Origin: Marsupella aquatica
Lineage: Eukaryota; Plantae; Marchantiophyta
DNA: 64,000 nucleotides
NCBI GenBank assembly: GCA_973895155.1
Contig: OZ316893.1
Location: 558,860-622,859 of the forward strand
Direction: 5' to 3'
Shown here: positions 1,801 through 53,117 of the stretch, piece after piece
Numbering within the stretch: the stretch's first letter is position 1
How the letters are laid out: every line of letters starts with the position of its first letter
Position numbers and translations under genes: made by a program
Notes under the pieces: generated by a model
The model's database searches: none
Seen by the model: only the letters and a program-made list of their open reading frames with translations
Told to the model about the DNA's origin: nothing

Positions 1801-4227
1801 CTATTTCCTGGTTCCTGTCTTTTGTAAATACCTTGACCCATTGCAGACTGGACCATTTCCGTTTCCACACCTTCGGAAGTGCCAAGTCCCAAGTGGTATG
1901 TCTACTTCATGTACAGCTGGTATTCGCCGAGGTGGAATATGAATTGGTTCCCCTGTACCAAGAGGAGATACAGCTTCTTCATGCAACGGCCTTGGAATTT
2001 CTTGAGTGTCATCAATTGACATATCAGTGCCATTTTCTTCATTATCAAAAAGAAGGATCACAACAGATGGGTCCAAAACAACTTCTGGACCTCTAGACGA
2101 CATTGAGTGATGGAGTATTCCGGAAGTTTCCAAAACATCTTGCTTATCTTCCACCACTTTCACACTTCCAAAATCCGAATATAGATTTCTAGGATGTACC
2201 CCCCTAGTCACTGCCTCGGTTCGCATTACCCTATCATGTCGATGAGAGTCTTCAGCACCAACTCTTGCCGAAGCAGGACCTTTTCGCTTTCCAGACTTTG
2301 TGCAAAGATCCCTGTGAAGTGGTTGGGTATGATGGAAATCATACTTTGGAGACGACTCAAGCAAAAGATTTGATGCTTTCTCAAAAGCATCAAGAGATCC
2401 AAGAGTATCTGCATTCCGATATGCAAGTTCAAAAATGGTTGGTCCATGTCCCTTGTGACATCCCTCAATGTACGCAGCAAAGGCAACAATCTGTCCACCA
2501 GCTCGATTTTGGTCCAATTCACAAGCTTCCAACAATCCGATCTTCCTCTTCATTTGACAGGCTCTCATTGACGCATGTACAGATTCCGCTCCAGTACAAT
2601 TTGGCATCAATATTGGATTTGAGTCTGAAATCCAATACAAAAACAACATAAGATTATGTATCATGATGAAAGGCCCCAAACATAAACTCCCACTTAACCA
2701 GAATGCTAGCAACCTCGCTAGCCAACTCAAGTGGTTTACTTCACTTACCAGTCTGAAGTAGTTTCCCCATTGTCGCCAACGAACAACCCACCAGGCAATC
2801 CAACCTTGCGAAGCCCTCAATTTACCATGATGACAATTCCCAGATTTCCACCACTCTTGAATCTTGTCTGCCACTCTGTATGCCTCAACATATGTTGGAG
2901 CGTTCCAAAATTTCTCCCACATCTTGTAATGCTCTGAATGTTTCCCGTCACAAATTCCCTCCAATGTATGACGTCTCAGAGACTGAGACAAATGGAATGC
3001 ATCACTATGTTCTCTTTCTGGGAACCGGACACCATCAAAGAAAACATTTCTCACAGCAATCCATCCAGCTTCAGCATTGTCAGCCATAAAACCTGCTATC
3101 TCTACCTCACTAATACCATTCTCGGCAGCAACCTCCAACATTAAACGCCATGCAGTTTCCAAAGAGTCAGCATCCTCAGCTTTCAATTCACAAGTGAATA
3201 TTGTACAAAGGGCACGTTAAGTGTGATCATAAACATGAGCACTGAAAGTGAGCCAACCTGTTGTTATCCTATGCATCACGTCAAAACTCACCCATGCCCC
3301 CTCTAAAGTTCCTCCTCTTTGCATGCGACGGAGAATGTCAACACCTGAACCTGGACCCTTGGTACTCATCTTGAACACATGAGCCCGGATGGACTTCCCA
3401 GCCTGTCCCGGGAACATGAACCTCTAAAGGAATGGAAATTTCACACGCGTTTGCATCTCACAAAGTGAATCCAACTCACCTTTCTTGGGATTTCCTATCT
3501 TAACACTTCAAAAAATTGCATGGAACTTTGCCGGCGATGACACAACTTTCATTGAATTCCACAATTCAACCTCCTCTTCTTTTGAAAGATCTTGGCATGA
3601 CTTGGGATGCAAAAGCGATATCAATGTCTATCCCTATAGAAATGTTCTTCACCCTGGAGGGTGTTGCTAGTGGATGAGCTAGTTGGACGCCTTGAATAAC
3701 TTCTTCCGCTTTCTTCTTGGAAACTCGACACTTCCCAGTTCAAACTTGATGATCATGAAATCCCATATGCACAGCAAGTCGAGACATATGCTTTGATATA
3801 TGTGAATCCAAGGCCGGTTTTGCGTACACATAAAACATCTTAGCAGGACAGGGCCTTACACAAAAAGGTCTTTTGTCACAAAACCCGCAAACCAAACCTC
3901 CTTCAGGAACAAGGGAACCCGGCTGGAAGACATCTGTAAGAAGAGACCTTCCTGGGAATGCAGCTTCATTCTTGGCCCCAGTCTCTTTGAATTTTGAACA
4001 ATTCAAATTTTGACATTGAATAACACCTGTGCAGCGGACCTTGAAACAGACCAGTGGTTGCGTGGCTTCAGATTAGCAGATGTGGTGACCAATCTTGTCC
4101 ATGGATATCCATCATTATCACGGTCCATGTCTAGAAGCCCTTGCCCTCGACCAAATCTAGATTCCACCGGAGGAAGCTCATAGACCTTGTCTCCATTGTT
4201 ACTTTTGGGAAGCCGATCAACTTGGAA
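1801..4227 (-). pseudogene. Mutator/MULE-type DDE transposase with an N-terminal GCM/WRKY-like Zn finger; frameshifted and 5'-truncated
   Basis: Motifs across the minus-strand ORFs: CGFC...C...RLAVHMGFHDH (Zn finger), WVSFDVMH (D1), FMADNAEAGWIAVRNVF (D2), SDAFH (CxxH-like), NCTGAESVH (E). Probable intron ~2628-2749 (gtaagt...tttcag). Coding similarity stops abruptly at ~4227, where family-A sequence begins. Confidence 0.75.
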
Positions 4228-7200
4228 GCGCGCTAAGCGTCGGCGGCTAGGAAGGATCAACGGGAGGAAGGACCGGAAGAGGAGAGGGGTAAGGAGCGCT
4301 TGCAGGAGATGGTGGCTCATTTGCGAGCATGAACTAGGCAGACGACTATGTGAGGCCAACTACTGTCAGCTGCTTAGGCAAGCACTCGGGGAGAGAGTAC
4401 ATACCGACGATCGACCTAAGGAGGGTGTGAGCAACGTCAATCAAGCGACACATTTCTGGGGATGCCTGTTCGAACGGGCAACTGAGTACATCAAGACTTA
4501 CGAGGACGAGGAATCAGAAAGGGCCGCTTGAGAACGGCAAGAGCTCGCTCGATTGTGGGAGCTGCAGAGGACGGCTTTCTTAGGAGGCAAACTCATCAAC
4601 GCCGAGTTCTTGTGGACTCCTACTTCCAATCAGCTCGACGATCTTCTGTTTTGTGAAGACAGAATCATCGGCATTCGAGAGGCCATCAAGAACTGCAACG
4701 ACATACACTGGGAATTGAAGGGTAGCACGGAAAGGTGGACCCCGGCAACGGTTCTAGGAGAAACCTCCACTGCAGTAGAGATGAAGAGGAAGGGAGCCGT
4801 CAACAATGAAGCCACCCCGGCAAAAAGAACAAGGTCGGCGGCACCAAGGAAGCCAGCCGAGCAGCAGAGCAGGAGGCAGGGAGAAGCCGAAGAGGAGGAG
4901 GTCGATCCCATCAATGCCATTCCAACTAGGGATGACACCTGGAAAGGCTGGGCAGCAACCCTACCGGTGGAGGTGCAACTACATTTTGCACGGGAGGAGG
5001 ATGCATGCTTTACGGCCATGCAGACCAAGAAGTACCAAGGCTTCATGGCCGGATCCGGCTTAGAGGCCTTTGTAAGATTACCATGGCTGAAGCCGGAGGT
5101 GCCGGATTCAGACTTATTAGAATTCGTGGGGTCATGGGAACCCGAGAACAATTCCACGAGGATATATGGGAAGGATTTCTATCTTACTCCCAAGGTGATT
5201 GCCGAAGTGTTTGGCTTGCCGATAGGCAATAAGACCAAAGTTGATACCAGGAAGACCTTGCCTGACAAGAAGTTCCGGTCGTTCCCTGGGCCATCAACGA
5301 AGGATGGCTTCTTCCGGAACACCTGCACCAACCCGCACATAGGAGAGATGATCGACTTCTTGCGGGTGACCATGCATTGTAACTTGCCGAGGGCAGAGAT
5401 CGGCAAGGCACAGGTCTATCTGGCAGAGAGGCCAGGCCCAAGCCGGGACTACAACGGGTACCTCCTCAACCAATTGAAGAAGATCTTAAAGGAGGAGCAG
5501 CAGGTAATCGGCGTGGGGAGTGTGTCGCGGCTTGGCTATCACATGCCGCTGTTGTGCCGGTATGCCAGAGGTCAGACCTTTGCCCCGGTACTTCCCCTGC
5601 AGGTAAGGGCACCCGAGGAAGCTCCAGCACCGAGGCCGGTAGCAGAGAAGCCTCAACCACCTGTTAGCCCTACGATCGAGCAGGTGTGTAGGCCAAGGAC
5701 GGAGGACTTGCCGATGCAGCAACTAGGCATGCAGAATCTGCTGAAACTACTGGAGAAAGAGAAGAGATCGGCATCGGCAACGACAACGGCAATGGCAACA
5801 ATGCAGGACACTGCTCCAGAGGTAGGCCTACACCGGCTTACAAGGGAAAACCCCTTTACTGGAGACAAGGAGAGAATCAGGCCAGAATCCAAGCCGGGTG
5901 TTCGAATGTACGTAGGAGTCTCAAGCTCTGAATCTGAGGCAGAATTTCCTGAAGCTCCTACGGACGAAGAGGAGAGGGAGAAGCCGGAAGTCCAAGGAGT
6001 AGAGGAGGCAGTGGAGGACTGCAGCCATGATAACTCCGGCTATGGGTCGGACCATGACGTTCCAGGAGTAAGGACCTGTGGCCGGTTTATCCCCACACTT
6101 CCAAGGGTAGTACGAGGGGACCCCAACCAGTAGAGTAGCCCTGAGTCTCCCCCACCAGATGTTGCTCCCCCGAGCTTTGACGGCATAAAACAGACGACGC
6201 AGAAATTTCAGGAGCGAATCAGGCAGGAAGAGGAGGCAGCCCTGGCTAGAGAAAAGGATTTTCCAGGAGGAGATTGGCCGGAGGACATCAAGCGGCTAGC
6301 CGAAAAAGGAAGCAAACCTCTAGCCACGATTGAAGAGATCCGCAAGACGGCTTGGGAGCAGAGGCCGCGGTGGATGATGCCGATGACTTCTACTTCCTCC
6401 ACCTATGCTAAGGACAGAGCCATGGAGTACGGGGAGATGTGTGGAGAACTGGCGCTCAGCATATTTGGGGAGGAGTTGGAGCAGGGACCCTTTTACCAGA
6501 GGGAGATGTTGGAGAAGCGCCAATTAGAAGAAGCGGTGGCCTTGGAAAGAAGCAAGAAGGACGAGGTCATCCGTCGGCTTAGGGAAATGGAATCCGAAAT
6601 CAAGGACCTGAGGGTGGCCAAGAAAGCCCAAGATGAGCTGCGGATTAAGCGGCATGAGCTAAATATCATGTAGGGCCAGTTGGATCCCGCACAATCTGAT
6701 AATCGGATGATCGAGAATCTACTAACGCGGACCCAAGGAGAATTGGCCGACGCAATCAAGGACAGGGAGAAATGGAAGAAGGAGCTGAGGAATGCAGAGG
6801 AGGCCCATATAACAGCCAACAACCGGGCCATGGCGGAGACCCAAAGAAAGGAATGGGCGTTGAAGGGGGAGCTCGAGAAAATCCGCGGAGCCCTTGAGCA
6901 GAAGGAGGCCGAGTTAGGGAAATCCTATCAAGGGATTATGGCGCTGCAGCAGGAGCTTGCATCCCTGACGGCCAGCTTCAAGGCCGACCTAAGGGAGAAG
7001 GACGAGATGCTCGATCAGACTTACGCCAAGATGAACCAGATGGAGTCTGTCATCATTGCAGAGCTCGACAAGGAGCTAAGAGCAACCCGGGAGGAGAGGG
7101 CTACCACCAAGAAGGAATTGGAGGAAGTCCACAGGAAATTGGAGGAAGCTAAAAACGAGCTAGAAGAGGCGCGCAAGGACCTGGATGAGACCCAGGAGGA

Positions 7201-8736
7201 GTTGGAGGAAATCACGAGGAAGATGGAGAACCTACAGCGGCGGGCCGACAACCAAACAGAGCGGCTGAAGAAACAAGCCGCAGTATTTAAGTGCTTGTCT
7301 TCATCAGGCCCAACTCCAATTGGGGCAACCAAGTTACCAGGTGTGGTACTGGCCGAAGAACAAGCCGCACCACCTGCACCAGTGACGGAAGTAAGTGGGA
7401 AGGGGAAGGGACCAGCTGCCGAACCAGAAAAGAAGAAGAAGCGGAAACCTTCAGGGTCAAGGAGTAATACAACTCCACTGGCCGTGGTGACCAAGGAGGT
7501 AGACCCAGCACCAACCTCCGGCATGAACACGGCAATAGATCCCGCTATCACCAAGGGTGGGGATGGCGCGGCCCAAGCCGAACTACTCAATAATGAGGCC
7601 GGTATCCCAGATCCGCCTCTTGAGCAGGCCGGGGAGACCATAGCCGAGGCTGAGGCCGTAGCCAAGAATGATTCCCGAGCCGACGCCGATGCCGATGGTA
7701 GACCCAGTCAGGCCGATGGAGAGTTGACTCAGTCAAGGGCAGGTAATCTGTTAGAGAATGAACCTACGACAGTGGCTGGGGAGGAAGCGTTGGGGGCGTC
7801 CATTGAAGATCCACCACCGGTGTCGTGACGGTGCAAGGGCGCCGTTCCTTTTAGGAAGGGCGGACGTGGAGGTAGGAGGCGTGAGTGGGCAGGGCGAGCG
7901 CTGATCTCCAAGTTTAGGATTAGGATCAGGACCAGGAGGCGGCCCTGACACTTAGCTTAGTGGGATTGCGGTTCCACTGGCAGGAGCAACACTTGTGCTC
8001 CTGCCTCGCTGTACAGTTAGGTAGATTACAGGTAGGATAGATTAAGCTTACGCAGCAAGTTCTGGACAGATCCACTGCCAGGATAAATACCTGGGCAGCA
8101 GGGAGCTCAGGGCCTCTTCTTTAGCAAGTTTTTAGTTTGCACCAGCCGGGCTGGGATCAAGTAGTAAGAGAAGCTCTCGGTTAGTCATACAGTGACCCTT
8201 GTGTATATTCATGTTTCCTCATGCCTAAGAGTTGAATAGAGTTGGCCTCACGGCTTAGTTCGCAGGGCTTGTGTATGAGATGTACTGTTTGTATGGCAAG
8301 TGCATGGTATGACTCAGTCAGAAGGAGTTATTTTGCTATTTGTGTGTCGCATTAACTTGTGTGAAGAGTGCCCACATCAACTAATAGAAGAAGGAAAGTA
8401 AGCAGGGGAGTGAGAGTTGGATGTGTCAAGCTGAGAGAGGTCTTAGCGGCTTAACCAAGCCTATTGGGGATCATTCCGGTGGCGGAATCCAAACATACCT
8501 AACAAGACGGAGGGGAAGACAAGGGAAGGCCTAGATTAGGCCGGCTACGTATCTCATGACCCGATGAAGGATCTGTCCAGTATATGTGTGTAAAATGTTA
8601 ATAGTAGTAGTAGAAGGAGGTTAGCAGCGTCCCATGCCGCTAAGCCGCTGAAACGGCCTCGCCAAGCGCGAAACCTGCGGGAATCGGCTTGAGCTAGGGG
8701 GTTTCTTGGGTTCAGGGAGCCATGGGACACACCACA
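4228..8736 (+). mobile_element. Family-A TG...CA element, copy A1, missing ~180 bp at the 5' end
   Basis: Colinear with 27942-32473 over the whole length; ends in GGGAGCCATGGGACACACCACA like the complete copy. No TSD can be tested because the 5' end is deleted. Confidence 0.9.
4232..7828 (+). pseudogene. Single ~1200-aa reading frame of element A1: Athila/Tat accessory-ORF-like 'plant transposon protein' domain plus long coiled coil; three nonsense codons
   Basis: ORFs 4187-4531, 4553-6133, 6374-6673 and 6680-7828 are all in the same frame. The stops at 4529, 6131 and 6671 align to CGA, CAG and CAG in copy A2. Motif GLEAFVRLPW...LLEFVGSW...RIYGKDFYLTPKVIAEVFGLP, followed by an E/K-rich heptad region. 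Confidence 0.75.
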
Positions 8737-8760: not shown

Positions 8761-11700
8761 ATGGCAAATTTTGCATCACCAGAGTCTATCTCTTCTCAAG
8801 CTTCACAGTCTGCAACTTCTCAGCGTCGAGAGACAAGGTCTTCGACTACCAACAAGGCACTAGCTTCGGGTTTGAAGACACCTCGTCGAAGGAAACTTGT
8901 TGATCCAATGGAGATTTTGCCACCACCGATGGAGTCTTCTAAGTTGGAACCGTTCTCCGTGGTGATCAACCGTCACCTCTACCACTTTGGGCCAAACAAA
9001 TTTGGGTATCCCCTTGTTCCTCCTCGAATTCCACTGTGTAGGATGCGAAACATGCAGCCTGTCAGGTCGCTGCAGACTGATTCCAATGCAATTGAAACGC
9101 TCAAGAATGAGTTTCGAGCTCAGGGTTACATTGAGGATGCGCCCAGGTTTTACGTTCAGATGACGAACAAGAACGGTGAGGTTCAGTTCATCAATGACAC
9201 CATTCGAATGGGTTGGGATCCGATATGGGCATTGCAGAACGAAGATTTCGAGAGAGAGTGCGATTCTCATCCAGACTTTGCTGTATTGAAGGACAAAATG
9301 TTTCACGTTTTTGATGGTAATCATCGTCTATACTCGTGGAATCTACTGGCCATCGAGAACCCACATGATATCAAATATCATCCTCGTGTTGTCACCAAGA
9401 TTTTCAAAGGGGAGAAAGACACGTTTGTGCAGATTGAATCTGCAATGCATGCCCTGAACCGGTGAGCACCAGATCTGTTCTGATTGATTCAATGCTGTCT
9501 GTCACTTCACATTTTGGGTTTTCTTATCTCTGATTTGTACTCGAAACATCTTTGATACTTTTGTTCATTGGCAGGCTCACTCAATGCCACGTTGAGAATT
9601 CATGGGTCCTAGAAGCAGATCGTGTCCAGAAGATACTGAACACGGACTTGTCGATCTACAAGGATTTGATTGATGCAGACAATTTCAAGTTGTTCCAACA
9701 AAAGATGCAAAATGTGAAGAAACCCTCCTGGTATTCAAAAAATATGACCCTGGATGCTTGTACTTACATTCTATCAGCTGCAAATATAGCTTCCCAGACT
9801 GCAGATTTGCAGAAGAAGTTTTCTCTCAAGGAGGATCTTGGAGAACCTTTGTCAAAAGCTGTGAAGGACACTGCTCTACGAGAAATGATGAAGGAGCAAC
9901 TATCTGATTGGAATGTTAAAGTTCCAAAAATTGCTCCTCTTCTCAATCCCGAATTCGGGGATTTCTTTCAGAAATGTGTGGAGATGCACAACTACTGTGA
10001 GAAAGAACGGAAGGAAGCACAAAGGACTGATGATAAAGGGAGAGGCAATGTCTCATGTGGTCTTGATCGAGCGAGGCTTTTTACCGGGGTAACATCTCTC
10101 AGCCCACTGCTTCGTTGCAATCTACTTGAAGCGCTGTGCAAGCCCGAGCTACGGAAGCAATATTTTCATCCTGGGCAATTCTCAGATAGTGAGACTAAAC
10201 TCTGGCTGCACAGGTGGGCTACGTGGGAACAAGTAGAGTCAATTGCTAGATCTCTTTTGTCCGAAGCTGTTTCAGAAATGATTCTAAGTGTCCCTGAATC
10301 TCGAGTTCTTTTAGCCTCAGAGAAGAACAAGGCATCACTTGTTCTTGATATTAGTGATGAGTTTGAGGGCTTTTTGCAGCGAGTTAAATCCAGGTTTTTC
10401 AAGAGCATTTGGGCCCCAAAAGTAGGGGAAAAGATAGACATTGTTGCATTTCGGAGAAGGGTAAAAAGATATGTATACCGATGTTTTGTTGATCGGGAGG
10501 ACGGTGGCCAATCGAGCATTCTGGTGGTGTTACCCTGCGTGTTTCTCCCAGTGGGCCGAATACGTGACTGACGATTTAGGAAATAAAAAATGTGGCGACT
10601 ACTCAATGTACCCTTGTGAGGACGTTGAGCCACTCCGGAAGATGAGTGAATGGGAGGTTTTACACTATCCATGGTACTTAGATTCAGAGAATTGGTCACT
10701 GACATTTGATGGGACAGAGAAGCTTGCTTTGCAGAAGATAATTCGTGGGTTAGTCCCAGAGTTTTATATTTCTAAATCAAAAATGCCCAGCCTCGAAGCA
10801 GTGCAGGCCGGGTGTGAGGCGATGGAGCAGGCTTGCCTTGGTGTTGCACCAATTGTTGATAGAAGCCGTTCCAGAAATTGAAGAAGGACGTTGTGAAGGA
10901 GGTGTCGAAAGAGACCTCTCAGGTTTCCGGCAGGAGAAGTAAGTGTGCTCATCGTCCTAACTCTCCATTGGCTTCTAATGTTTAGTCCTTTCTTTGCAAA
11001 TTCTCATTTTCTGAGGTTTTTGGTTCTCTTTTGTTTTCCAGAAAAGAGAAGGTCGACTGGTTCAGAGAGTGTCCAGACCGTGCAGAATCGTGGGCGACAG
11101 GATCCCATTGAACCTGAATCTCTGGATTTTGAGATTGTGACGAAACCGATTGGTGATAAGCTTAAGAAGAAGAGAAAAGTTCAAGTGCTCTCAGATTCAA
11201 AAGATGAGGAAGGGTCGATTAGTGAGGGTGTGATGAGGATATGTGGACTTCAACTGGATGGGAATCGACATTTCTTTGCCAAGAGTAATTTACGTTTCAT
11301 AGCAGACTCCATTGCTTTGAAGAAAGTTTGACCTTCGTGGATGGGGGAGGGGGATCGATGGCTGAGTGAGATTTTGAGTTCTTCAGAACATCCGAATCCC
11401 CTAAGAATCAATGGCAAGCCTTACACCGGTACCAGTGCCCATCTTGGGTTCATTGCTCTTCCTACAGGACTAAGGCCTCGTGTTACTGCTGTGAAGGTGC
11501 CAGAATGGAATGTTTGGATGGAGAAACTTCCTTATTACTTCTTCGGAGTCATGAGGCCCAGGCTGTCCGATGATGGATATGTGGCTGTTCTCCATAGTGG
11601 AGAATTTAACCACATGAAGCAGATTTTTGCTGCCATTGAGCAGAAGAATAAATTCAAACATCTTCGCCAGTACCACGTTTTGTTGAGTAGCCCAATGTGG

Positions 11701-12804
11701 ATGCCAGACATCGATGTTGAGGTGAGATGTCAAGAGTTTTTGGTTTAAATTATAGGTGGTTTTTTGCCAGCGAGGTTGCTAGCCTTCACAGCCTCAATAT
11801 TTGACATATTGTTTGCTTTTCCAGGTTTGCAATCTCAGTCTGGATGTGTTTTGTCGAACTGAATTTGATGGGAAGATCCCCAAGGACCCGAAGTACATCC
11901 CCATGGCAACATCCGAGGATGCATCTCATAAGAAGTTACTCAGTCTTTGTTACCCAAAAATCAATGTCAGGATTGAGTTAGCTTTTGCAGGGTCTTGTCG
12001 ATTATCTATTGGATTCATGCAGGCGGTGATGGAGCTTTTGACAAAGCCAAGAGACATTGTGCTAGATTGGAATGTTGGAGATGGAAGTTCATTCCGAGCG
12101 GGGGAACTCTCCGGGAGGTTTGTAGTTGGGGTTGAGGATAGGGAATTTCTCCATGATGCTGCGCAGGAGTCGTTGAAGTTGGTTCTGGATCGTCATAAGA
12201 AAATTGAAGACATCACTGTCGGGATGGGTACTGAGTCATTGGAGGACGGGGATTCAGATGACGAGTTTACTCTTGCCGGATCGAGTGGTGGAAGAACGAA
12301 AGTTCCTGCTCCGGATGGGAAAGATGACCACGATGAATTTGACTTGGAGTAATGTACTTATCCTGTCTCATACCAAATCCAACTGTGTTTAGAAAGTTAA
12401 GTTCAGTTTTTTCCACCTTGAATTAATCGGCTGCTGGTTTTGCTTCTTACAGTGATCGGCGTGTAGATTGGTTCTCGGAGGAGAGATTTTGGCTCCGAAA
12501 GGAAATTGAGGGCGCTTTTCTCTTCTCGCCTGAGAAATCGTTCACTCTACCTTGCTATGCGGAGAAGTCTGCAATTGAAGCAGATGAGACTTTTGTTATG
12601 ACTTGGGAAGGAAAAGGTCGGAGGTCATACCGTGGCGCTCGGAGGAATTTGTACAGCCTTCCTTTCATGGATGTTGAGGCGGGTCATGTGAAGAGATATG
12701 TGGACGAGTCCGCTGAGTCAACTGATAGGGAGTTTAGCAATGCGGAAATCAATAGTAGTAGTAGGAATGATTTGGAATCAGATGAAAGTCATTCCACAAA
12801 TTAG
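8761..12804 (+). pseudogene. Spliced gene: ParB/Srx-like N-terminal domain plus C-terminal beta-class N4C/N6A DNA methyltransferase-like domain; two apparent frameshifts and one in-frame stop
   Basis: ATG at 8761. GT-AG introns at 9462-9574, 10939-11041, 11722-11824 and probably ~12349-12452. ParB/Srx-like motif FHVFDGNHRLYSW. MTase-like segments in beta order: HLGFIALPTG (motif IV position), RPRLSDDGYVAV, and MELLTKPRDIVLDWNVGDGSSFRAGELSGRFVVGVED (motif X/I/II). Lesions near 10485, 10860 and 11329. Confidence 0.7.
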
Positions 12805-13483
12805 TGTGAAGTTTGATTCTGCTTGTGTGTTCCCTGAATGGGAAGCAGCAGAATAAGCTTGATCTCTTTAGCCATTCTGGGGAACTTACTCTCAGTTTCA
12901 ATAAAGTAATCGAGGCAGCCAATTTTGATGAGTGGGAAATGTCTGTAACTTGAGTATAATCTTTATTGGTTATCTTGTCTTGATCAGTTTTGTGTATGAT
13001 GGAAGGCTACCGCCCTCGCTTACAACCCATGTGCATTATGAAAGTTTTGACAAATGCTTAGTTTGGTTGTGTGAAATCCTTTTTAGGCCCGTTTCTAGGC
13101 ACTAAATATGCCATTCAAAAAATGACATATCCCTCGCTAACAAAAGCTCATGTCGCTAGCAATTTCTCCTGTTTCCTTGCATGGTACAAACCCCCTTAAG
13201 TAACATTCTGTATCGATCAAGTCGTTCGCAACTACAGTTGGTCGAAGTGAAAGAAATATGAGAGCTTCTCACACTGTCGTCCGCGACTATATTTGGTTTA
13301 AGCATCTTGTCATAGCTCGGCACACACATCTTAGCTTTACATAGCATTCAGCGATCTTTGAATTTGACGTCCTGCGATTTCTGCAACGCGTGCTCGTGCA
13401 GCTCACTTGAACGTCTCTGCGACAATCGGGACTCCCAGTTGTCATGGTCTAACAAGCAACTGAAAACAACAAGAAACTCGCTA

Positions 13484-13648
13484 TTTAGGGTTTAGGGTTA
13501 GAGACTAGTTATCCGCTGTCAGTTACGATTTCTCTCTGCGGACGGACGGGCAACCCTTTTGATAGGGAGAGCCCTCATTTCACTCTGGAATTGAATGGTT
13601 TTGGGGAATTACGGAGAACTGAATTGAGCTTTTAGGGTTTTAAGGTTT
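13484..13648 (+). promoter_or_regulatory. Telo-box (TTTAGGG/AAACCCTA) motifs upstream of the ribosomal protein gene
   Basis: tttagggtttagggttag at ~13484 and tttagggttttaaggttt at ~13631, within 250 bp of the mL53 ATG. Telo-boxes are established plant promoter elements of translation-machinery genes. Confidence 0.6.
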
Positions 13649-13728
13649 AAAGAGAAAACTGAATCGATATATTTGGGAGTCCACGGAGCCCCAGGAGAGA
13701 GATATACGGCGCGCGCGAGAGAGAGAGG

Positions 13729-14079
13729 ATGTTCAAGCATTTATCAAAGGTGAGAATAGAGTTCAATGCTCTGGACCCCCGAGCAGCGTCGGCCCTGGAA
13801 TTTCTGGCACAATGCAACTCGAGGAAGGCCCGGCAGTCGAACCCGAAGTGCGAGGTCATAGTCAAGCGCAGGACCGACGAGGCTACTCCTCTTATTACCG
13901 TTACTTACGCAAATGGCAGAGTACAGGAGTTGGATGGATCGGTAATGCATGCCAACCAGATTCGGAGAGGAATTCTCGCCCAGGCAGATATGATGGAAAC
14001 CGAGCAGCGTTTTCGGGATGCGGGGCAGGAGTGGCCGGTCATCATCCCCGTCGACGAGCCTGCACAAAAGTGCACCTGA
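13729..14079 (+). CDS. MRPL53: Mitochondrial large ribosomal subunit protein mL53
   Basis: Intronless 116-aa ORF MFKHLSKVRIEFNALDPRAASALEFLAQCNSRKARQSNPKCEV... recognisable as the plant mL53 family. Confidence 0.9.
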   Translation: MFKHLSKVRIEFNALDPRAASALEFLAQCNSRKARQSNPKCEVIVKRRTDEATPLITVTYANGRVQELDGSVMHANQIRRGILAQADMMETEQRFRDAGQEWPVIIPVDEPAQKCT

Positions 14080-17000
14080 GACCCACCTGGAGATTCAGTA
14101 GAGAGCTCAGTCCCGTTTTAGTTCTACAAGAAATTCCGGTTTTACAGCGGAAACTCCAATCAATTACCAACTGAAATTGTCCTTTGAAGTTGCCATAGTT
14201 GTCACATATGCCCATGGATCGCAAGCAAGTAAAACAGAGATGATTTACTATGCTGCGGACATTGATGCAAGCTTCAGATCGTGATCTAGAATGGAGCATT
14301 TCTCAAAGCTTAATTGATGGGAAAAAGTTTCCAGAACTAGGACTTTGCGGCGAAATGAAGTTGTTCCACATTTGAACCTTCACAAAATCAGGACTGGTGT
14401 GCTTCCTGCAATAAGCGAACTGCTTATCACATTACAAGTTAACTGGTCTACTGCAGATGTAAAAAGAGAGAATATATCACTGAGGTATTTTTCTAATACT
14501 AAGATGCTTTGTTCAAGATTGTATCAGATTCCGTCCACAAGTCAGTGGCCAGTCGCGTAGTACTTTGATTCGTGCTATCAAACCATCTGTCTACGCCATG
14601 GTTGGTCTTATGAGTTCCAACACGGAGATTTTAGATATGTTTATGAATCATTCTAAGCGTTTTTATCCATGCCAAACTGTATGTTCTTTCTTATATCGTC
14701 TACACATTTGTAATGAATGAAATTGTTCATATTTTGACGACGCACACTTGTCAATGAAAGTATTAATGAAATTGATCGATGGGTCATGCAGATTCTCACT
14801 GTGCATGTGGATAGCTTACATTAGTACAGGCTCTAATCAAATAGCTTTGTCCTCGTTTGTCTCTTCTGCTCCTTCGAAACCAGGATGCTAGTTGTACTCT
14901 TCTTTGACTACCTGTAAGCTACTGCAACCAATCTTTCGTCTGCCAGGTCTGTATGTTCTCGACGTCGCAATAGGCTTCTCTTCACCAGCTTGTATTGCTA
15001 GAGACGTTAACCTGTTCGAAATTTCACCTTGATACAATAATTTCCGACAGGATCCGTCTCGTTTGTGGATTGTACAACTGACCCACTAACGAGCTAGTAT
15101 TTCCAAAACCTTCTTGAGTATACAGTCTACCAACAGCTAGTTCTAGTCAAGCGGCTTGAGGTCAAGAACATGAATCCTTTCAGAGCTGTAAGATTTAGTT
15201 CATTCATACATTGTTTTCTTGGAGTACACAGCAGATGTAATGACGAAGGGCGTCGAGAAGCTTTAGGGTTTAGGCGGAGGCTCGCTGTTTACATGTGGAA
15301 GAGTTCGGCCCAACCTTAGAAGTGATCTTGAAATTATTTTGGCTCGGTTTGAAAACTCTATTTTTGGTTGAGAAATGGCCCAGTCTGAAGATCACTTGGG
15401 AGAACCCATCTTATTATGCCTGTCTTTCTTCATGCCACCGGCATTTTCTTGTGGTGCCCTTATATATGTGTACATGTCCACCATAAGGCACGCTACCACA
15501 GATTTTGAACATGTTTGGCTCGTCGTGCATTGAGAACTGTGTTTTTTGTTGCTACTGCGGCAATTCATGGGCCACTAGTTGGAATACAAATTTAGCTTCA
15601 GGACAATTGCGTTTCTCGAATTGCTGGAGCCTGACTCAATTCCTGGTCATTCTAGGCGACGGGATTCACGACAAAGTTCAATTTCAACGTAGAGATTCAG
15701 CTTTTTGACTTCGTGTTATGTTGTTGGGGAGAATCCTGCAGGACTGATGCTAGTCCAATCAAAGGGAGTCACACATCAGTTCCAAGACACTATGTTAGCT
15801 GTGGTCAGAGAATGAGTCTAAAGCCTTTGGTCCACAGAAGCTTGAACAATCAATAAGGGATCATATGGGTGAGTTACTTGTCGAACAGTCCATACCTTAG
15901 TCTCCTTTAAAGGCTTGGTTTGACTACTCACGGCTCTCTGTTGGAGATCTTTGTCTCCTTCAATGGACTCTTCCATGGGGCCGTCCATCACCTGACTTAC
16001 TCGTAGGTCTGGCTATTCTTTCTTTTGTCTTGGAAAGCAAACTTTAATGAAAAAGATAAAGCATGCTTTCCGCGGATTTCAGGTTTGGCTATTCTTACCT
16101 TCGTAGCTGATCTATCCTGACTCTCGGAAATCAGCTTTTCTCCCTTTGAAGCAGTCACTGTTAATACCCTGCTCAAAGCCTGGCCTTAGCAATTACTTAA
16201 AAACATAGCTGCTCAAAATCATGAGCATATTTGCAAAGCACTTGCCAAACGCTGCGATTTTTACGCAAGTTTCGCTTCTCAAAATCATGAGAGTTGCAAA
16301 GTACTTGCCCGACAAACAGCTAGGCATCCTTTGCAAAGCTAATCGAAACTTTGTGAAGCTAAAAGAAACGCAATTACTTTCTCGAGTTTTCAAATCCAAC
16401 TGTGATTAGAAACTCATTCGGCACCTTTAGTCTTGGGAACTTTGAAAACTTACTGTCCCCCATTTTCTTTCGAACCACAGCGCCTCTGTGCAAATGTGCA
16501 ATGCGTGTACAGCGCAAAAACGTTTCAATCCTTCCACCTTCGGAAATGGTTTGTGATAACTTTTGTTTATTAAGTCCCTAAAGCTTTAAACTCGTTGTTT
16601 GTGTTTTTTCTAGTGTCGATCAAAATGTCTTAATATGAGGATCTAGCAAGGAGGTTGTCAATGCCGATAAGTTTAAGATTAGCTAGTTTCAAAGAGCAAA
16701 AGAGAGCTCCTTGCAGTAGGCATCATTTGTGTTTCTAGTTTGTCACAAATCAATAGAGGATAGGTTGCTTGCGGGGGATTCGATTAGTGGGCTAGAGGAT
16801 TGGGTGGGGCCTTGGTTGAGTCGAAGCACTTTCTTAGTTTGATATAGTTGAGAACGGAATTTAAATTCTCTTTTTAATTAATTCTTCCAAAGTGATTAGG
16901 GAGTTGCTACTAATGTCTACAAGTTCTGTAAGGTTGTCTAACTATTTATCACGGGCCTCTTCCATATGTCATGTTTAAAGTCTCTTTGTCATTGCATAAG

Positions 17001-18736: not shown

Positions 18737-19382
18737 ATGGCGTGCACTACAGTCGTCACCGTCAGTGCCCCGGTCGTGGCCCAGTTTGGAGAGTCTCGAG
18801 TTCTGTCCCTCCAGAGCACCGTCGTCTCCGGTGCTGCTCCCAGGACCAGCTTCTCATCCAAGCTCGTCGCCAACAAGGGCAGGGTTGTCATGAGGTACGA
18901 GGAATCTCTTCTTTCCAATCTCTTGTCCCATTCCAATGTTGGGAATTTTACTGCTGCCTGCTGTAGGTCTCTGTGGACGATCTAGGGTCGGAAAACTCCG
19001 GTGATACTGAGCTCAGCTCGGCCTAAGTATTTGGATGAGTTGAGATTGATGAGCTTCCGAAGTACTGCATTTTCCGGTGAGGTTAGGTCGGGGGAATGGT
19101 TGGGCTTCTATATGACACTCCGGGAGCTGACCATTCTTCTCAATCGTTCAATTTTTTGGACGCAGCGCTGCACCTCAAAAGGCCATCAACATGGCTGGAC
19201 TGACCACCATCGCATTGGTGGCCGCTACTATCGTCCCCGAAATCGCCGAAGCTGCGGCCCCAGGAGTGTCCCCCTCTTTGAAGAACTTGCTCTTAAGCGT
19301 TGTGGCCGGAGGAGTTGTTCTCGGCGGCATCGGCATTGTCATCGCAGGAGTGTCCACCTTTGATCCTGTCAAGAGACGGTGA
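18737..19382 (+). CDS. PSBX: Photosystem II subunit X precursor (exons 18737-18894 and 19166-19382, 124 aa)
   Basis: Transit peptide exon, GT-AG intron 18895-19165, thylakoid signal ending AEA, mature peptide [20 protein letters not shown]...[10 protein letters not shown]. Confidence 0.95.
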
Positions 19383-20431
19383 AGAAGAAGCAGGGATGGC
19401 AGTGCCATCATGTAGATTTTGGGTAGTGCCGATCCAAAGACAGAGGGGAAAGAACTCGTCGAAATCTTGTTTATCTACCTCTGTATGTGTACATCAAAAA
19501 CTATATCATGATTCAGCGAATGAAGACTATAATTCTTTGTGATCATCGCATTTGTTGCCATTTCAATCAACAAACATTTAATGATTGATGACTTCTTTGT
19601 TTCCTAAGACAGAGCAGCTCTGAAACTGGTAGAGGCGGTTGTAGCTTATAGTTGATTGACTACCACCAGGGAATATCCTTGAGCAGCTCTTTGGAATTTC
19701 CGCACTGTTTGGGACTTGGCTTCTCACCTTGGGATTTGATGCGATAAATCTGGAGGAATTTATCGCATGAGTATGACTCTACCACATGAGTATCTCTTGC
19801 TATGGGGCACTTGTGGTAGCCAATGGCAATTATGATTTTGGGTCTTTGTGCCTCTGGAAGATCTGGAAGGGTGAATCTGGCATGCTTTGCAATGTATAGC
19901 CGATTCACTTTAAAATTGATTCGGAAAAGATTTATCTTAATGAGGGGGAAGATTTATCTTAGCAAAGTGGGTCTGGAAACAGGAATCTAGTCGAACATAA
20001 TTGCCCAGGTATGAAACTTTGAAGCACGGAGAGATGTTTGTCGTCGGGGTAAGGCCCTAACGGGCCCACAGGAGAACAACAATCTCGCGAAATTTCTTTA
20101 CCAGATTTGATAGAAAGAAAAGTGATCACTCTCAAGCAAACCTGCGTATCCTCCGACAAACTAGTTGAGTGCCCAACCGCTGTTCTACGTTAAGTCTTTC
20201 AAACGGTACTCTTTTGCCTCGAAATGCCTTGTTATGTGACTTCCACGCGACGAATATAAAAAGAAAGTTGCCTACATAACTTTTGAACGTCAAGGATAGA
20301 GCTATCTCAAGTTTGCCAATCGTTGTGACAAGATTGATGTAAGCATGGGGAAAAACTTTCTCTATATTAGGGCTATGTAACCAACGCCTACCTTTTACGA
20401 ATATTCTCGAAATGCTCATTATGCCCGTGCA

Positions 20432-20514: not shown

Positions 20515-23500
20515 AGGGCCTCGACGGTTTCTTTAGGCGAATTTTAGTAAGGGCGATCGGATGGAAAACCGGGAGCCAATGGAGGAGGTTTATTATAGCG
20601 GTTCATAATATCCCTAGTATCGACTCCTGCTGTGGCTAAAACAGAGCAACCTTAAAAATTACCCTGCAGTAGACTTCTGGAGCAATGTTGTAGTTGGGCT
20701 CGAGGGACGTATCAAAAAGTACACAAAAGTCAAAAGGCTATCTGCTGGGCATGGGAGACTATCTACACTGCCCAAGAAACACAAACAGAAAATGCCAACT
20801 CTTTAGACAAGTATAGGATAATGCAACTCTAGGCAGCCGTTATTGGGCTGCAACGGGGTGACCAGGTTCTGACAGGAAGTTGACCGGCGTAGCCGGGAAA
20901 CTGACTGGAAGAACTGGGGAACACCGGTAAAGCCCACTAATGGATGGCCTAGATCTGCGCTAACTCATGTAATCTAGGTCGACTGTGTTGGTTACCGGAT
21001 AAACCCGTTTTGGCAAATGGGATGAGGCATCAGCAGCGCGCAAACAATGGGAGGCGCGAGCAATGCGAGAGTGGGAGGCAGTAGTGGGAGGTGCGAGCGA
21101 TGCGCGAGTAGTGTGAGAATGAAGGTCGAAGCGCTAAGTGGGAGGCTGAACGGGGAGGCGAGTGCAGCGGCTGAGTCGTCAAGTTGCTGAAAGGGCGGCG
21201 AGTTGCAGTCAATTTCACTGCATTTGAAATGGTTTTCTATGGTGGCATTGCTTTGTGCTTCTTTGTGTAGCTTGCAGTTTTTAAAATCTGTTTAGGGTGG
21301 CGTGAGCGCCGTGGAGATTTCAATCTAGTTTGAGTTGCATGCTTGTGCTGTGCGCTCGCCCCTTCAGCTGATTCAAAATGTGGATCCCCTGTGTGTTCTT
21401 GCTCTCAGATCCCTGTTATGTAATTAGTATAAGGTCATCAGACGATCGAATCACTAAGAACATGGCTCAATTGTGTCAAGAAGCTCTGCTCATTTTCTGC
21501 CATAACTGGTTCGATTAATTCAGTGTTGCCTGGTTGCAAGGTTGTGCGGGGTCGAAGGATGGGGGATTCTGATGACGGTGATCTGATGTTTGTTGAGGGA
21601 GAGGAAGAAGGAGGAGACATGGACATCATGTTCTTGGATGAGGCTAATGGGCCCTACAAGCTTCCGTGCCCGTCCAACTTGTCTGTTGTCTTCGATAATG
21701 AAACTTCCAATCTGCCTGGCCTGTTCGATGTATCCCATGTGTTTGAGAACGAAGTTGACACACTTTCACTCAACCAACCTTTGTATCATGGCATTGTGCC
21801 TCAGATCGAAGCTACTGTTCAGCCTCCTACTGAGTTGATGCAGGTAGAGGTAAATGCCCCTGGATTCAGGATTGTTATTGATCCATCGTTGGCTGATGCA
21901 GGGACAGGGAAAGAAAAGCGTAGATCTGAATAGAATGATCAATGGGCCACAAACCGTGCGAATCTACTTCGAACTGCTCTGAAGTGGGACACGAGTATCC
22001 CACTTGGGGATCTGCCTCTGGAGGTGCTTGATGAGCTATTCAGTAATGTCTTCTCCCGGGTTGTGAAGTTGGATGGCAAGCAGTATCCGTCATCGTCTTT
22101 AATGGGCCTGATGAATGCCTTCAATCGTGTGATAAGGCATGCAAGCGAGATGAGAGCTTTGAGAGGGGACAGAAATGTTGTGGATAGGGACTTCAAAATC
22201 AGCAAGCATGCATGCTTCACAAAAACTCGACTGGTTCTGAAAGCTGCAATCGAGAAGAGTGCGAAAGAGGGAATCAACAAAAAGACCAAGAAGGTACACG
22301 CTTCATTTATTTGTGTTGTGAATTATGCAGCTTGTTGTTGAACCATAACTGTGTTTTTGGATTTTGATAAGAGTGTGTTTCCTTGTGACAGGTATCGAAC
22401 CTCACAGAAGAGATGGAGAAAGCTATCCTGCCTGATATGGATCACCAGATTAACTTCTCCCATGGTTGTCAAAAACGTTTGGCTTTCTTCTTCCTTGTGA
22501 GGCTTGGGATTCGAGGAAAGGAGAATTGAATTCAGTCTATTAGCTGTCGGTTTTAGTTTGGTGATATTCAGTTCATGTTCGTTCTGACATTTTCTTGGAG
22601 TGGTTTGTGCTTGACTGATGCAGCTTTGAGGAGAGACAAAGCAAGAATAACTCCTACACGCTTGAGAGATACAACGAGGAGCAGTTTTGGAAAGTATTCC
22701 ATAGCTTTGAACCTGATTTTGTGCTGACATTGAGACAATATTTACGTCACATGCCTCCTCTTGAAGAGGGGACAAAACCTGACTTGTTCATGGGTGCTAT
22801 TCCTAATCCGATTGGAAATATTTGGTACAACAAGGTTCACAAGGTGTCGAAGGAGAGAACAGGTTCATGGCTTGTGAATATGCTGAAGTTAGTGGGCCTG
22901 CCTACAGAGTTGTTCAGTAATCGGTCTGGCAGAGCAACTCTGATTACACGCATGGCTGCAAGGGGAGTGCCTGATGAAGTTGGCATGCTGATATCAGGGC
23001 ATCATACCATAAGTGGGTATCTAAGGTATGATCGAACCAAGGCTATCAAGATGGAGGCAGCCACTCTAGTAGCATCAAATCCTATGATCAGTTACGAGTC
23101 TGCGTTACAGGAAGTATCCAAGAAGTTTGTGGAAGAAAAGATTGTAGGCAGTGCCCTTTGACCTGTGTGATTGATGGGGAGAGAGGGAGATGTGCTGCTT
23201 CTTCATCGTCAAATCAGAGTGTGCAGGTCCCTATAGATTCGACTTGTGATGCCGCCAGTACGGTGGGTAATGAGTGATTCAGCCTAACAACGCTTAGCAC
23301 GTGCATTAGGGGTATCTTAGGCCATAATTATTAGCATAACGACAATATTTAGGTAGCTATTATGAGTAGGAAATCATTAGTCAATAAGGGGCATTTGTGT
23401 TCGGGCTGGCAGCGGGTCGCCATTCGCATGCCCGGGTTGCAAGCATGTAATGGGCCCCCTTTCCCCCCCTCGGGTCCGTATAACAAAATTTGAGAGGCGG

Positions 23501-23716
23501 CCACTGACACATGTTGACCCGGACTGGCGGAGTGGCCAGTACCCTGCAAGCGTGAAAGGCTCGGCCTATAAGCGACAAGGAGGCGTCGGGCAATCGACGA
23601 GCTCTCACGGTATAAAAAGGGGGCCAATCCTTTGCAGTGCATCAGTTCTTTAGTCCACGCGCCAGCTTTGACCCCAGTTCTCTCACTCATCCTTAGTCGC
23701 CTTCTATCTCCTCTGA

Positions 23717-24289
23717 ATGTCGCACACGATCGTTTCCAGTTCGGCCATACGATTTTGGATGCAGTTCCTGTCTATCGAGGGGCACTTGGCCGACTCATTA
23801 AAACACGCCAACCCACGCCAATACGAAATCGAATGCGAGTACGAGAGTGCCATCCGCCTAGCAGGCTGCCACCACTATCTCCTTAACTTTGATTACCCGT
23901 CCCAGAGCGAGCTTTACCGACCCGAAGAAATATCAGGGTACTTCTTTGACGGGGGAAAATACATCGGCTTCTGGGAGGCATTGCTTCGGCTTCTGGATGC
24001 GGTCTTCACTATCCCGGGCACGATCGACTTACAGTGGCACCACTTCGACCACATCCCCGCTCGGGTCCAGGACATCATCAACAGTGAGTCCAGCACTACC
24101 CGGTCGACAAGGGCGTCTACACTTACTTCGGAAAATCTCTACCGGCACCTACAGAATTTCATGGCAACCACACCATCGACCACCGGTGCCGGCCCAGCCG
24201 TGCCCGTACCCGCACCAGCACCGGCTCAGGCTCAGGCTCCGCCTCAGCCTAGCCAACCCCACCGCCGGTCGCCCCGCCCATACAGGTGA
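23717..24289 (+). CDS. Element-B ORF1, 190 aa, unknown function, Pro/Ala-rich tail
   Basis: Intact ATG-TGA ORF about 100 bp downstream of TATAAAAAGGGG (23611). Confidence 0.55.
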   Translation: MSHTIVSSSAIRFWMQFLSIEGHLADSLKHANPRQYEIECEYESAIRLAGCHHYLLNFDYPSQSELYRPEEISGYFFDGGKYIGFWEALLRLLDAVFTIPGTIDLQWHHFDHIPARVQDIINSESSTTRSTRASTLTSENLYRHLQNFMATTPSTTGAGPAVPVPAPAPAQAQAPPQPSQPHRRSPRPYR

Positions 24290-24306
24290 GATCCGTCGTC
24301 AATGCT

Positions 24307-26332
24307 ATGGATCTCAGCGATGACAAAGAGGCTACCTTACCCCTACTCAAGTGGCCTAGAGGAGCAAGCACCCAGGGAGCCGGCACTACATCGCCTCTTC
24401 CCCAGGCCTGGACCCAAGTAGCGGCTCCGGTGGACAACACGGTGACCGTAGCCGCCCCGGCCCCAATACTAACGGTGGTAGCACTACCTATACCCGATCG
24501 AGAGGATGGGGAGATGTCACCCTCCCCGAGCCAGTCTCGGGGAAAGAAGAGGAAGGAACCCGCAGCTGTATCGGGGTTACCCATGGCCACGGTAGTCGCG
24601 GCCAAGGTGACAATGCACCGCATGGGGGAGAACATGCATAAGAACATCCTCCATCCCAAACATGCAGTGTGCTTGAAGACTCAGGGGTTTGAGCACCTTG
24701 CCTCTCTCCCTTGGAACACCTGCAGATACTACGGGGAGGACATGATGGAGTTCGTCAAGAATTATGATGACGTCCGTCAGTAGACTCAGCTACAAGGGAG
24801 GAATATGTCCCTCACAGAAGAGCGGCTCAAGATGATCTTTGGGCTACCCGAGGGAGATCAACGAGTCGAATCATGGGCTCCCGGGGGCAAAGGAGCCAAG
24901 TACCAATCCTCGAGTTTTCCCTCCAAGGGGTCAGTGGACAACGGGTTCGTGATGAGGACCTGCCTCATCCCCAAGATAGCCGAGCGGCTGGAGTTCCAGA
25001 GGTATGTCCTCCACATGATGGAACCCCGGGCAAGATCTCCGCTGCCCAGGTTATCCAGGTCAAGAACTATCGGCCTACAAAGTGGGCGTCGTACTTTGCT
25101 AAGAAGTTCCATGAAGAGATGGAATGGCAAAGGAAGGCATTGTACATCAGTGGGAAGGCGTATTTTGCGAGCCACATCGAGATCATTCTCGAGTGGTATG
25201 CCCGGTTTGATCGATGAACCCTTCCCCGGGCCAACATAACTAAGTTGGTTCCGACTAAGTGGATCTTCCCGGCCTTGGAGAGACGGCCTCAACCTGAGGC
25301 CCAAAGTCTAGCAGCCACGCAGGCCTCACCCACCCCACCTCCACAAGTAGCCGTAGCCGTGGCCGAAGAGGTATCGGACGAGGCAGTGATCGCAACCTTA
25401 GACGCGATCAACCAGACCAGGCCAAGTACAGAAGTCAGGGCGGTGGAGGCCTTGACCAAGGGTCCAGAAGATGCACCGGTGGCTATTCCAGAGGACAGCA
25501 CAATGATGGAGGAGGACACTCCAGCCCCTTCCAACACTACATCCCCAGGGCTGGATGTCACTACCCCGGCTCCCGCGCGAGTTGACGTTTGCCCATGCCC
25601 AAATCTGGACTCGCACAACCTGGACCACCCGGAACTCTTTGCACCGGGTACATTTCTGAACAAGATTTTGGGAGATTTCTCCCAATGGATTGCCCGGGAT
25701 ACCGGGGAGTTCATGGCCCGGAAGGTAGCCTACTTCTTCAATCAGGAGTTGGTTACCGCAGTAAAGGCAGGTTGGGCCTAGTCGGAGTCCCTTAAGAGGA
25801 TAGAGCGGTACCGGGTTGAGTCCGTGTACCTAAAGGGAAAAATTGAGACTCAAGAGGCTGAGCTTTTGCAACTACGACCCAAGGTTGCAGCCGCCGATGA
25901 GTTGTTAGCAAATGCGCACGCCCTTACCGCCTTAGCCAAACATGCCAAAGCTGGGAAGGAGGCCGAGATTGCACGGCTCCAGACCCAGATTGACAGTTTG
26001 AAGAATCAAACTGTCACTGGTAGAAAGACCTAGAGGAGGCCGAAGAGCGGGCCCAACGTGACACTACGGAGATTGCCGCCCTACAGGCCAAAGTAGCGCG
26101 GCTTCAAACCAAAGCCGAGAAGCAGAACCAGATGGTGGACAAGCTGACGAGCAACGCCCAGCAACTGGAAGAGGCATGCTAGGAGGCAGCTGAGTAGACG
26201 GACGCGACAAAGCGAGAGAACAAATCTCTGCTAGACCAAGTCCAGCTCCTCAAGATGGACAACGACAGACTCCGTAGGCAGCGGGATGGCCGCTTCCACT
26301 CGGACGGCTCTGGCAAGCGCACCAGGCATTAG
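24307..26332 (+). pseudogene. Element-B ORF2: same plant-transposon-protein-like domain plus coiled coil as family A; disrupted
   Basis: QGFEHLASLPW...DMMEFVKNYD...LQGRNMSLTEERLKMIFGLPEG aligns with A's SGLEAFVRLPW...DLLEFVGSWE...IYGKDFYLTPKVIAEVFGLPIG. Several TAG stops and frameshifts. Confidence 0.7.
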
Positions 26333-27761
26333 CGGAGAGTTAGACTTAGAATAGAACTAGGAGTAGCTAAAATAGGCTGTTAGGACAAGTGCCGGGCATA
26401 AGATAGCGGCGCTGACACATTAGCCAGCCTGTGTAGAATAGGTTAGACTAATAGGACAAGTCATAACCAGCTTAGCGAGGATATAAGTTAGCGTAGATTT
26501 GGGCATGAGGCCAGGCTGGTCCTCAACCCTTACTATTTAGTAGCCCCCCGGTAGAGGCACAGGGGGAGATTTTAGACTAAGAAGTTGGCCATTCGCGGTA
26601 CGCGTGGGGAGTCCCAAACTTGATGAAGTGCCGGAGTGCCAAGGGGAGGGTATATGACTAAGCTCATTGGGCGAGTGCGGAGCCGGGCTCCGTTGTAGTG
26701 TATACTCCTCGGCCTTGGGCCCGTTCATTCACGAGGTGTCGGGTCAACCAATCGTAAGTGTATGATCATAAATGAATGAAATCCTTTCCCCTCAATTCCT
26801 TCGTGTAAATCGAGATTTATGGTTGCGTATGAATGCATGTATGAGTCTCGTGTGCAAGTATCAAGGCCGGGCCAAACACGTTGTGCCGAGAGTGCACGGG
26901 GTGCAGGTTTCACTTACGGGGTAGCGAGCCAGGGTTGAGCACTTGTACTAATGGATCTGGATCGAAGGCGGTAACACAAAGGCTTAAAAGTCCATAAGCC
27001 AGGGTCGATCCCGTGTCGACTAAGGTACGTTCCGGCGGCGGAACACAAATCATACCTAAGAGGTGTCTGTATATAACAGTAGGCGCACTGAGCGCTAGTT
27101 TATGTGAGTTAGGTGCATTCTGTGCTTCCCTCCCTGCCCGAATCCTCATATTTATGAAGGATGTGCCTATCTAAGCCGAAGCCCGGGTTAAGGCCTAAGC
27201 TGACGACGTGACATGACTGCATTCACACCTCTAGTGGAGAGGGTGAGCGAAAAACGTTCTTTGCAATTGGCAATAGCTGCAGGGCCAATTTAGGTAAAAT
27301 ATTATCTATACTTGTTATTTGCTTCATCGTTGCTTATATGTAGTCTTTCTGTACACTGACAAAGGTCAGTTGTTATGTGACAGAAACCTGGTGATGGCAT
27401 GGGCGTAAGTGACATTCATGAAAAGAGCAAGGAGTTTCTTCAAGATTTTGAATCAGTCAATTGGGACAAGGAGGTTCTTGCTAATCAGGGGTTAGCAAAG
27501 TATCTTAGAGGAGATGCATCTGCTGTTTCAATTGCCAACAGCTTGGCTAATGATTCATTCCAGAATTGCAATGTTACCATCAAGATTGTTCAAGCTAAGG
27601 ACAAGGAGAAGGAGGCAGCAAGCGAGACAGAAGCCCAGTATGAGTTAGATTAGGGACAAAATAAAACAGCTGATCAAATATGGTAGTGTAGTTTTATCGA
27701 TAGTCTGAGATCAAGTATAGTCGTTTCCAAGATTGGATTGTACTTTCGAAGCTTTTGAAGC

Positions 27762-52836: not shown

Positions 52837-53117
52837 CACTAGTAGAAATACCCCCTATTTTTTACCAAACCACTATTGACTAATGTGACAAGGTTATGGA
52901 AGTTTAGGGAGTTATCACTACATATGTCTTAAGTATCACTTCTACAAACTATCCACTCATTTGTTGCGACTCCTTCATAAGGAAAATGGCAGGTCCACTA
53001 TCCAAGCTAAATGTCTTAGTGCTAAGTACTTATGTGAGTGAGTGCTAATCACCAATTGCCAAACATTCAAGCTTTTAATGTGAGAAAGTCTCAAATAGTA
53101 GAGGTACCCCATTAGGT

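Follow-up and report, generated by a model that had tools for sequence, protein, structure and literature searches.

Fusions of a ParB-type domain with an N6/N4 DNA methyltransferase are described from phages and prophages (PMC12704722), as are ParB-terminase loci (PMC4738411). ParB-type clamps that use cytidine triphosphate (CTP), such as VirB, KorB, BisD and Noc, regulate genes on the mobile DNA of prokaryotes without a fused methyltransferase, and VirB acts as an anti-silencer that loads onto DNA and slides (10.1101/2023.06.01.543266). For eukaryotes, a 2025 survey gives sulfiredoxin as the commonest member of the ParB/Srx fold (PMC12704722), and PMC4738411 lists a ParB-helix-turn-helix fusion in chlorophytes and chytrids among eukaryotic N6A methyltransferase clades, with few in land plants. 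Here we describe a spliced gene at 8761-12804 of a 64,000-nt stretch of the liverwort Marsupella aquatica (contig OZ316893.1, positions 558,860 to 622,859; hereafter the window), predicted to combine the two folds that make up the phage fusions, in the order that they have there. The ParB-methylase fusion is known from prokaryotic mobile DNA; its spliced form and its expansion in plants are new.

The plant family differs from the phage fusions in being spliced and nuclear, in its length of ~1,200 aa, in a predicted helix-turn-helix, a large helical region and linkers, and in that most members lack the aromatic residue of methyltransferase motif IV. Its likeness to VirB, KorB, BisD and Noc lies in the predicted nucleotide-binding and helix-turn-helix regions and in the retained residues of the phosphate-binding motif, the plant protein being a putative clamp. 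Sulfiredoxin lacks the helix-turn-helix predicted for the plant family. Marchantia DN4MT1 and bdelloid N4CMT are likewise eukaryotic nuclear proteins with a beta-class amino-methyltransferase fold that came from prokaryotes, but they carry TSPPY or SPPY, have no ParB part and are host genes with demonstrated N4-methylcytosine (4mC) activity, whereas the plant family has D-x-P-x-G and many scattered copies. A further parallel is the VANDAL group of Mutator-like elements (MULEs), with an accessory gene, VANC, and short motifs that lie in non-coding sequence and in tandem repeats; anti-silencing has been demonstrated for VANC, and its effect reaches beyond the binding sites (PMC10398659).

Gene structure and decay

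The gene lies on the + strand and comprises five exons, which sum to 3,621 nt (1,207 codons including the stop), and four introns of 103-113 nt, all GT-AG. A sequence-only reading of this DNA had proposed a spliced gene of ~1200 codons with three motifs in a given order, and these were located accordingly: DGNHRL at 9313-9330, RLSDDG at 11560-11577 and TKPRDIVLDWNVGDGSSFRAGELSGRFVVGVE at 12041-12136. Exon 1 (8761-9461) codes for a basic low-complexity leader followed by a ParB-type nucleotide-binding domain (V-R, DGNHR at 9313-9327, terminal N), as judged from motifs, profile matches and tblastn, with the fold taken from the structure model of a relative, P0022. Exon 2 (9575-10938), which shares 30% identity with residues 324-596 of P0022 (tblastn), contains a predicted ParB-like helix-turn-helix region with helical insertions and then a helical region of unknown fold. 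Exon 3 (11042-11721) carries a linker and the N-terminal half of the beta-class methyltransferase fold, with the motif IV position (ALPTG) at 11455-11469; exon 4 (11825-12348) carries the C-terminal half, in which motif I reads DWNVGDG and VGVE supplies the acidic residue; and exon 5 (12453-12804) an acidic low-complexity tail and the stop codon.

This copy is a pseudogene. The frame of exon 2 is lost once between ~10490 and 10568 and regained between 10863 and 10878, and a TGA at 11329 interrupts the frame of exon 3. At motif IV, IALPTG takes the place of the D-x-P-x-G seen in relatives, with Ala at the position of the catalytic Asp. We call the copy dead because of these two compensating frameshifts, the stop and the Ala.

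Relatives and distribution

The pieces of the window gene are collinear with the full-length Riccia proteins P0155, P0023, P0022, P0157 and P0031 (tblastn, summed E 2e-28 to 4e-58). P0155 (KAL3677308.1, Riccia sorocarpa, 1,207 aa) is apparently intact and collinear from the ParB part through motif I. A protein search with exon 1 gave two relatives among 48 candidates, and a profile of three exon 1 sequences matched 407 proteins at E<=0.001, 189 of them at 1e-10, among 1.84 billion representatives (the best 150 of the 407 were taken as the list). Because of the collinear Riccia proteins and the 407 profile matches, we regard the gene as more than a chance reading frame. Thirty proteins were examined by cluster, 29 of ParB type and one transposase; the named species among them are Riccia sorocarpa, Adiantum capillus-veneris and A. 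nelumboides only, the remainder being Logan, ENA and JGI records. One predicted member from A. capillus-veneris (P0101) ends in a NIF/FCP1-type phosphatase domain (Pfam E 2e-12) and may be a gene-model join.

Of the ParB-type proteins examined, 19 are Riccia gene models, which represent 17 loci (two neighbouring pairs merged) on six contigs. The Riccia rows split into at least two separate clades in a quick tree, which was built from a 107-row set minus four short rows, has no prokaryotic outgroup and points to no donor. Many copies in the family are broken or split. In the 14 close relatives aligned, the ParB open reading frame (ORF) stops at one common intron position, so the gene has long been spliced and is old in plants. 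No relative turned up when viral contigs (three stretches) and bacterial and archaeal genomes (250 stretches) were scanned by pattern, and a metagenome scan gave four loci from 183 stretches, each 1.2-1.8 kb long and too short to show neighbours. A word-based protein search with exon 4 returned no match among 678 candidates, and PDB sequence searches gave nothing significant. No paper on this plant family was found in literature searches, whose coverage leaves out most subscription journals.

The ParB-type part

The ParB/Srx core fold, as claimed in the sequence-only reading, was found in the structure model of P0022. Box II G-x-x-R and the phosphate-binding residues are kept (G in 98, R in 88, the upstream R in 89 and the terminal N in 83 of 107 rows), with equivalence of pocket residues set by motif rather than by residue-level structural alignment. 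Two-domain ParB/Noc chains match the P0022 model better than sulfiredoxin does, with 192-199 residues aligning to model residues 170-536 at a root-mean-square deviation of 5.3-5.8 and with long insertions. The helix-turn-helix predicted after the ParB domain goes beyond what had been proposed for this locus, as do the adjoining transposase and the common intronic palindrome described below.

The position of the CTP-hydrolysis Glu (E93 of Myxococcus ParB) is Asn in 103/107 rows, and that of Q52 is variable. Because these hydrolysis residues are not conserved, the sequences do not place the family among canonical ParB CTPases. In the ESM Atlas, features of exon 1 resemble fungal DUF3723 clusters (0.96, 183 features) and one unnamed eukaryotic cluster. 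DUF3723 is cargo of fungal Starships (10.1101/2021.12.13.472469) and may be another eukaryotic mobile ParB-fold family; this likeness is one of features without alignment, and serves as a lead only. A literature search that paired DUF3723 with ParB found no paper.

The methyltransferase part

The C-terminal part is predicted to be a permuted beta-class N6/N4 methyltransferase fold (motif IV before motif I). This agrees with the fold proposed earlier, and is suggested by Pfam and ESM Atlas matches together with the motif order. Pfam N6_N4_Mtase matches exon 4 of the window gene at E 7e-4 and three Riccia proteins at E 9e-6 to 5e-5, with scores of 20-26.2 bits, just below the 26.7 cut-off. Exon 4 also matches a PHROG DNA methyltransferase (E 0.0018), and the closest feature look-alikes in the ESM Atlas are phage N6_N4 clusters (0.95). 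The alignment with a cyanophage methylase spans 229 columns (21% identity) and places DLPYG over DLPTG, with motif I downstream; matches to phages and plasmids by tblastn are weak (best E 0.01 and 0.05), and nearly all listed rows are DNA methyltransferases. Single-sequence structure prediction of this part was poor (mean predicted local distance difference test score, pLDDT, 33).

Motif IV reads DLPT, DLPT, DMPS, DMPT, DVPF and DFPI in six relatives and ALPT in the window copy. The canonical (D/N/S)-P-P-(Y/F/W) is not found, the aromatic position being T, S or I in 5/6 relatives. Since a phage enzyme annotated as a methylase carries DLPY, only the last position is clearly deviant, and the aromatic residue at this position stacks on the target base (PMC10406627). 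The supposed likeness to the 4mC enzymes of Marchantia and bdelloids proved weak, with SPPY or TSPPY there and D-x-P-x-G, mostly without the aromatic residue, here; neither the window copy nor the six relatives with the motif have S at its first position. The Asp and second Pro of motif IV, the G-x-G for S-adenosylmethionine (SAM) binding (GDG in the window copy, GWG in Riccia, GCG in Adiantum) and the acidic residue after it (E in 4/4 rows aligned) are conserved from liverwort to ferns. SAM binding by the family is likely, and the odds that its members are catalytically active are about even.

Copies of the gene and the adjoining transposase

In four public runs the flanking DNA was matched with zero differences, and the gene was covered by contigs ~10-12% diverged. 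Many diverged copies of the gene exist; their summed depth is about ten to tens of times that of low-depth bins, which is not readable as a copy number. The gene is therefore not the single-copy host gene that the sequence-only reading had allowed for, being multi-copy as well as spliced. The raised depth extends over the neighbouring transposase-like gene and stops before ~14005, near an intronless gene for mitochondrial ribosomal protein L53 (MRPL53; 13729-14079, Pfam E 1e-15), which looks host-like and has telo-box-like repeats upstream. A further host-like gene at 18738-19383 was recognised by eye and is presumably psbX.

Head-to-head with the ParB-methylase gene lies a decayed MULE-like DDE transposase gene (1804-4227, - strand). 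Its catalytic residues follow the order D-D-DxxH-W-E, as in MULE transposases (D-D-(C/D)xxH-W-E), with DxxH and not CxxH, and the MULE class is assigned from this motif order alone. The D1-D2 spacing is 67-68 in 9/9 transposase relatives checked and the D2-H spacing is 29 in 7/9, compared with 69 and 24 in Muta1 (PMC5225508). The family (P0158-P0168) has a Cys/His-rich N-terminal region; no transposase profile matched in Pfam (11 proteins) or NCBIfam (12 proteins), nor was there a match among PDB sequences, and it may represent a MULE clade outside the present classification.

A very high-copy, 5'-truncated long terminal repeat (LTR)-like insertion (4228-8736, + strand), which is not part of the system, has replaced the DNA that lay between the two genes. 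Its 3' end sits 24 nt upstream of the ParB-methylase ATG, and it abuts the transposase-like gene, whose 5' end is cut off at 4228 with the loss of ~190 N-terminal codons relative to relatives. Compared with an intact 4.7-kb twin at 27762-32473 (TG...CA ends, 5-bp duplication GAAGC), the insertion lacks 180 nt of its 5' end. Because the insertion is truncated and the adjoining gene has lost its N-terminal codons, DNA between the two genes must have been deleted. This repeat was rejected as the carrier, as the full copy ends before any ParB-methylase gene. It also occurs at 1-275, has a summed depth near 1e5 and contains long ORFs, with coiled coil but without a clear Pfam family; it resembles a giant solo LTR that contains coding sequence.

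A shared intronic palindrome

One intron of each gene contains a 25-mer, 88% identical and in the same sense orientation in both. It is the top match between the two gene regions and was reached in 0/100 shuffles, narrowly and in a post hoc test. Its core is an 8-2-8 near-palindrome of 18 nt, GCCAGCGA-GG-TTGCTAGC in intron 3 of the ParB-methylase gene (11766-11783), a candidate loading site, and GCTAGCAA-CC-TCGCTAGC in the transposase-like gene (2705-2722). Position 11777 is C in most contig depth, which makes the palindrome better. parS sites are palindromes with 8-bp arms. Half-sites were found in the non-coding DNA on either outer side and nowhere in the coding parts of the two genes: three with a GCTAGC core (1090, 1273 and 1441, within 1090-1448) belong to a degenerate tandem repeat that follows the transposase-like gene on its downstream side, and two (13134-13160) lie downstream of the ParB-methylase gene. 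The 18-mer supports one element that would hold both genes and is a candidate parS-like site, from a test made after the fact on sites that are not independent. An intron branch point was rejected as its explanation, given its distance of 40-80 nt from the acceptors.

A second remnant and other elements in the window

Of a second, distant paralogue the window retains the last exon of the methyltransferase part, at 52355-52687 (- strand; tblastn E 1e-6 with P0156), which has lost the first G of G-x-G; the rest of this paralogue likely lies on the far side of a CACTA insertion, past the end of the window. The CACTA element (52837-63812; Transposase_21, DUF4218; terminal repeats, ATT duplication) is inserted in a 34-nt tandem array beside this remnant. 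We rejected the remnant as CACTA cargo, since it lies outside the terminal repeats. A Helitron, of which a decayed Rep region is seen at 41646-45300 (minus strand), could be its carrier.

Between 30-nt inverted repeats at 20969-32916 lies a spliced gene (~21560-23161) which we take to be tyrosine-recombinase-like from its motif, without a Pfam match at E 0.05. Depth is modestly raised there, with two nested high-copy insertions, and the region is possibly a Crypton-like element. A second very high-copy repeat (23243-27260) has degenerate ORFs and no Pfam match in the pieces scanned.

Discussion

Our tentative reading, which we hold at somewhat less than even confidence, is that the decayed gene was an accessory of a MULE-like transposon that acted on its own element, marking or shielding it. 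A dimer would recognise the GCTAGCGA-NN-TCGCTAGC palindrome in the introns of the element through its helix-turn-helix; a nucleotide, probably CTP, would close the clamp, which, by analogy with ParB, KorB and VirB, could slide over several kilobases; and the tethered methyltransferase fold would bind SAM and either write an N6-methyladenine (6mA) or 4mC mark or occupy sites needed by the host enzymes for 5-methylcytosine (5mC), so that only its own element family would escape 5mC silencing. With similar reserve, we infer an accessory protein perhaps comparable to VANC in role and to VirB in mechanism. We know of no ParB or methyltransferase fold in VANC, and no VANC-type family in Pfam matched any piece of the gene. 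The bolder form of this reading, in which DNA transposons of early land plants carry a working ParB-parS system whose nucleotide-gated clamp, loaded onto the intronic palindrome, drags an amino-methyltransferase along and sets a private 6mA/4mC mark or a 5mC block, we consider doubtful.

Of the proposal that the gene is transposon cargo, the cargo status itself stands as likely, with the link to a transposase seen at one locus; element ends were not recovered. Several observations weigh against the link to a MULE. Neither terminal inverted repeats nor an 8-11 bp target duplication was found between 276-1800 and 12850-14100, and the ends may be decayed or of a type without such repeats; the single Riccia transposase relative is not adjacent to a known ParB-type model; and the second remnant sits near the Helitron Rep region, just outside the CACTA element. 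The missing inverted repeats, and a motif IV that lacks its aromatic residue in most members, would suit a transposition helper: its ParB part would bind palindromes inside an element with poor terminal repeats and bring together or bridge the ends of that element, while the methyltransferase fold would serve as a DNA-binding or timing module. Such a helper would also agree with the presence of sites in both genes and close to either end of the putative element, and with the ability of MULE accessory proteins to bind their transposase (MURA-MURB, PMC12973397). We nevertheless think it unlikely, because D-x-P and G-x-G are conserved from liverwort to ferns, which a pure scaffold need not do.

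The position of the remnant between Helitron and CACTA, the Riccia transposase without a ParB-type neighbour and the likeness of exon 1 to the Starship cargo DUF3723 would instead favour a mobile gene on one or more other carriers (a Helitron, a tyrosine-recombinase element or an unknown class), with the MULE adjacency and the 18-mer arising by chance in a window that is nearly all transposon DNA. The sense-oriented 25-mer common to both genes, the depth raised on both and the half-sites on both outer flanks argue against this, and we judge it improbable. We give as little credence to an old, horizontally acquired family that serves the host or nothing, a sulfiredoxin-like module with a dead methyltransferase passively copied by transposons. 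The broken copies and the old first intron fit that account, and amino-methyltransferases have been domesticated in Marchantia and bdelloids (10.1101/2021.02.12.428880, PMC8885841), but two-domain ParB chains fit better than sulfiredoxin, and deeply diverged subfamilies within one genome with invariant pocket residues are what element-level selection predicts.

The loading-and-sliding ParB clamps described come from bacteria and bacterial mobile DNA, and the plant family, in which the pocket and the predicted helix-turn-helix are kept, would extend this device to plant chromatin. The spread of VANC anti-silencing past its binding sites has been called enigmatic (PMC10398659), and a clamp, if our reading is true, would be a direct mechanism for such spreading. 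In the bolder form of the reading, the family would bring a clamp of the CTP type into the eukaryotic nucleus and provide built-in, element-specific anti-silencing that spreads over a self-limited domain. The family could also account for 6mA or 4mC in plants without seeds.
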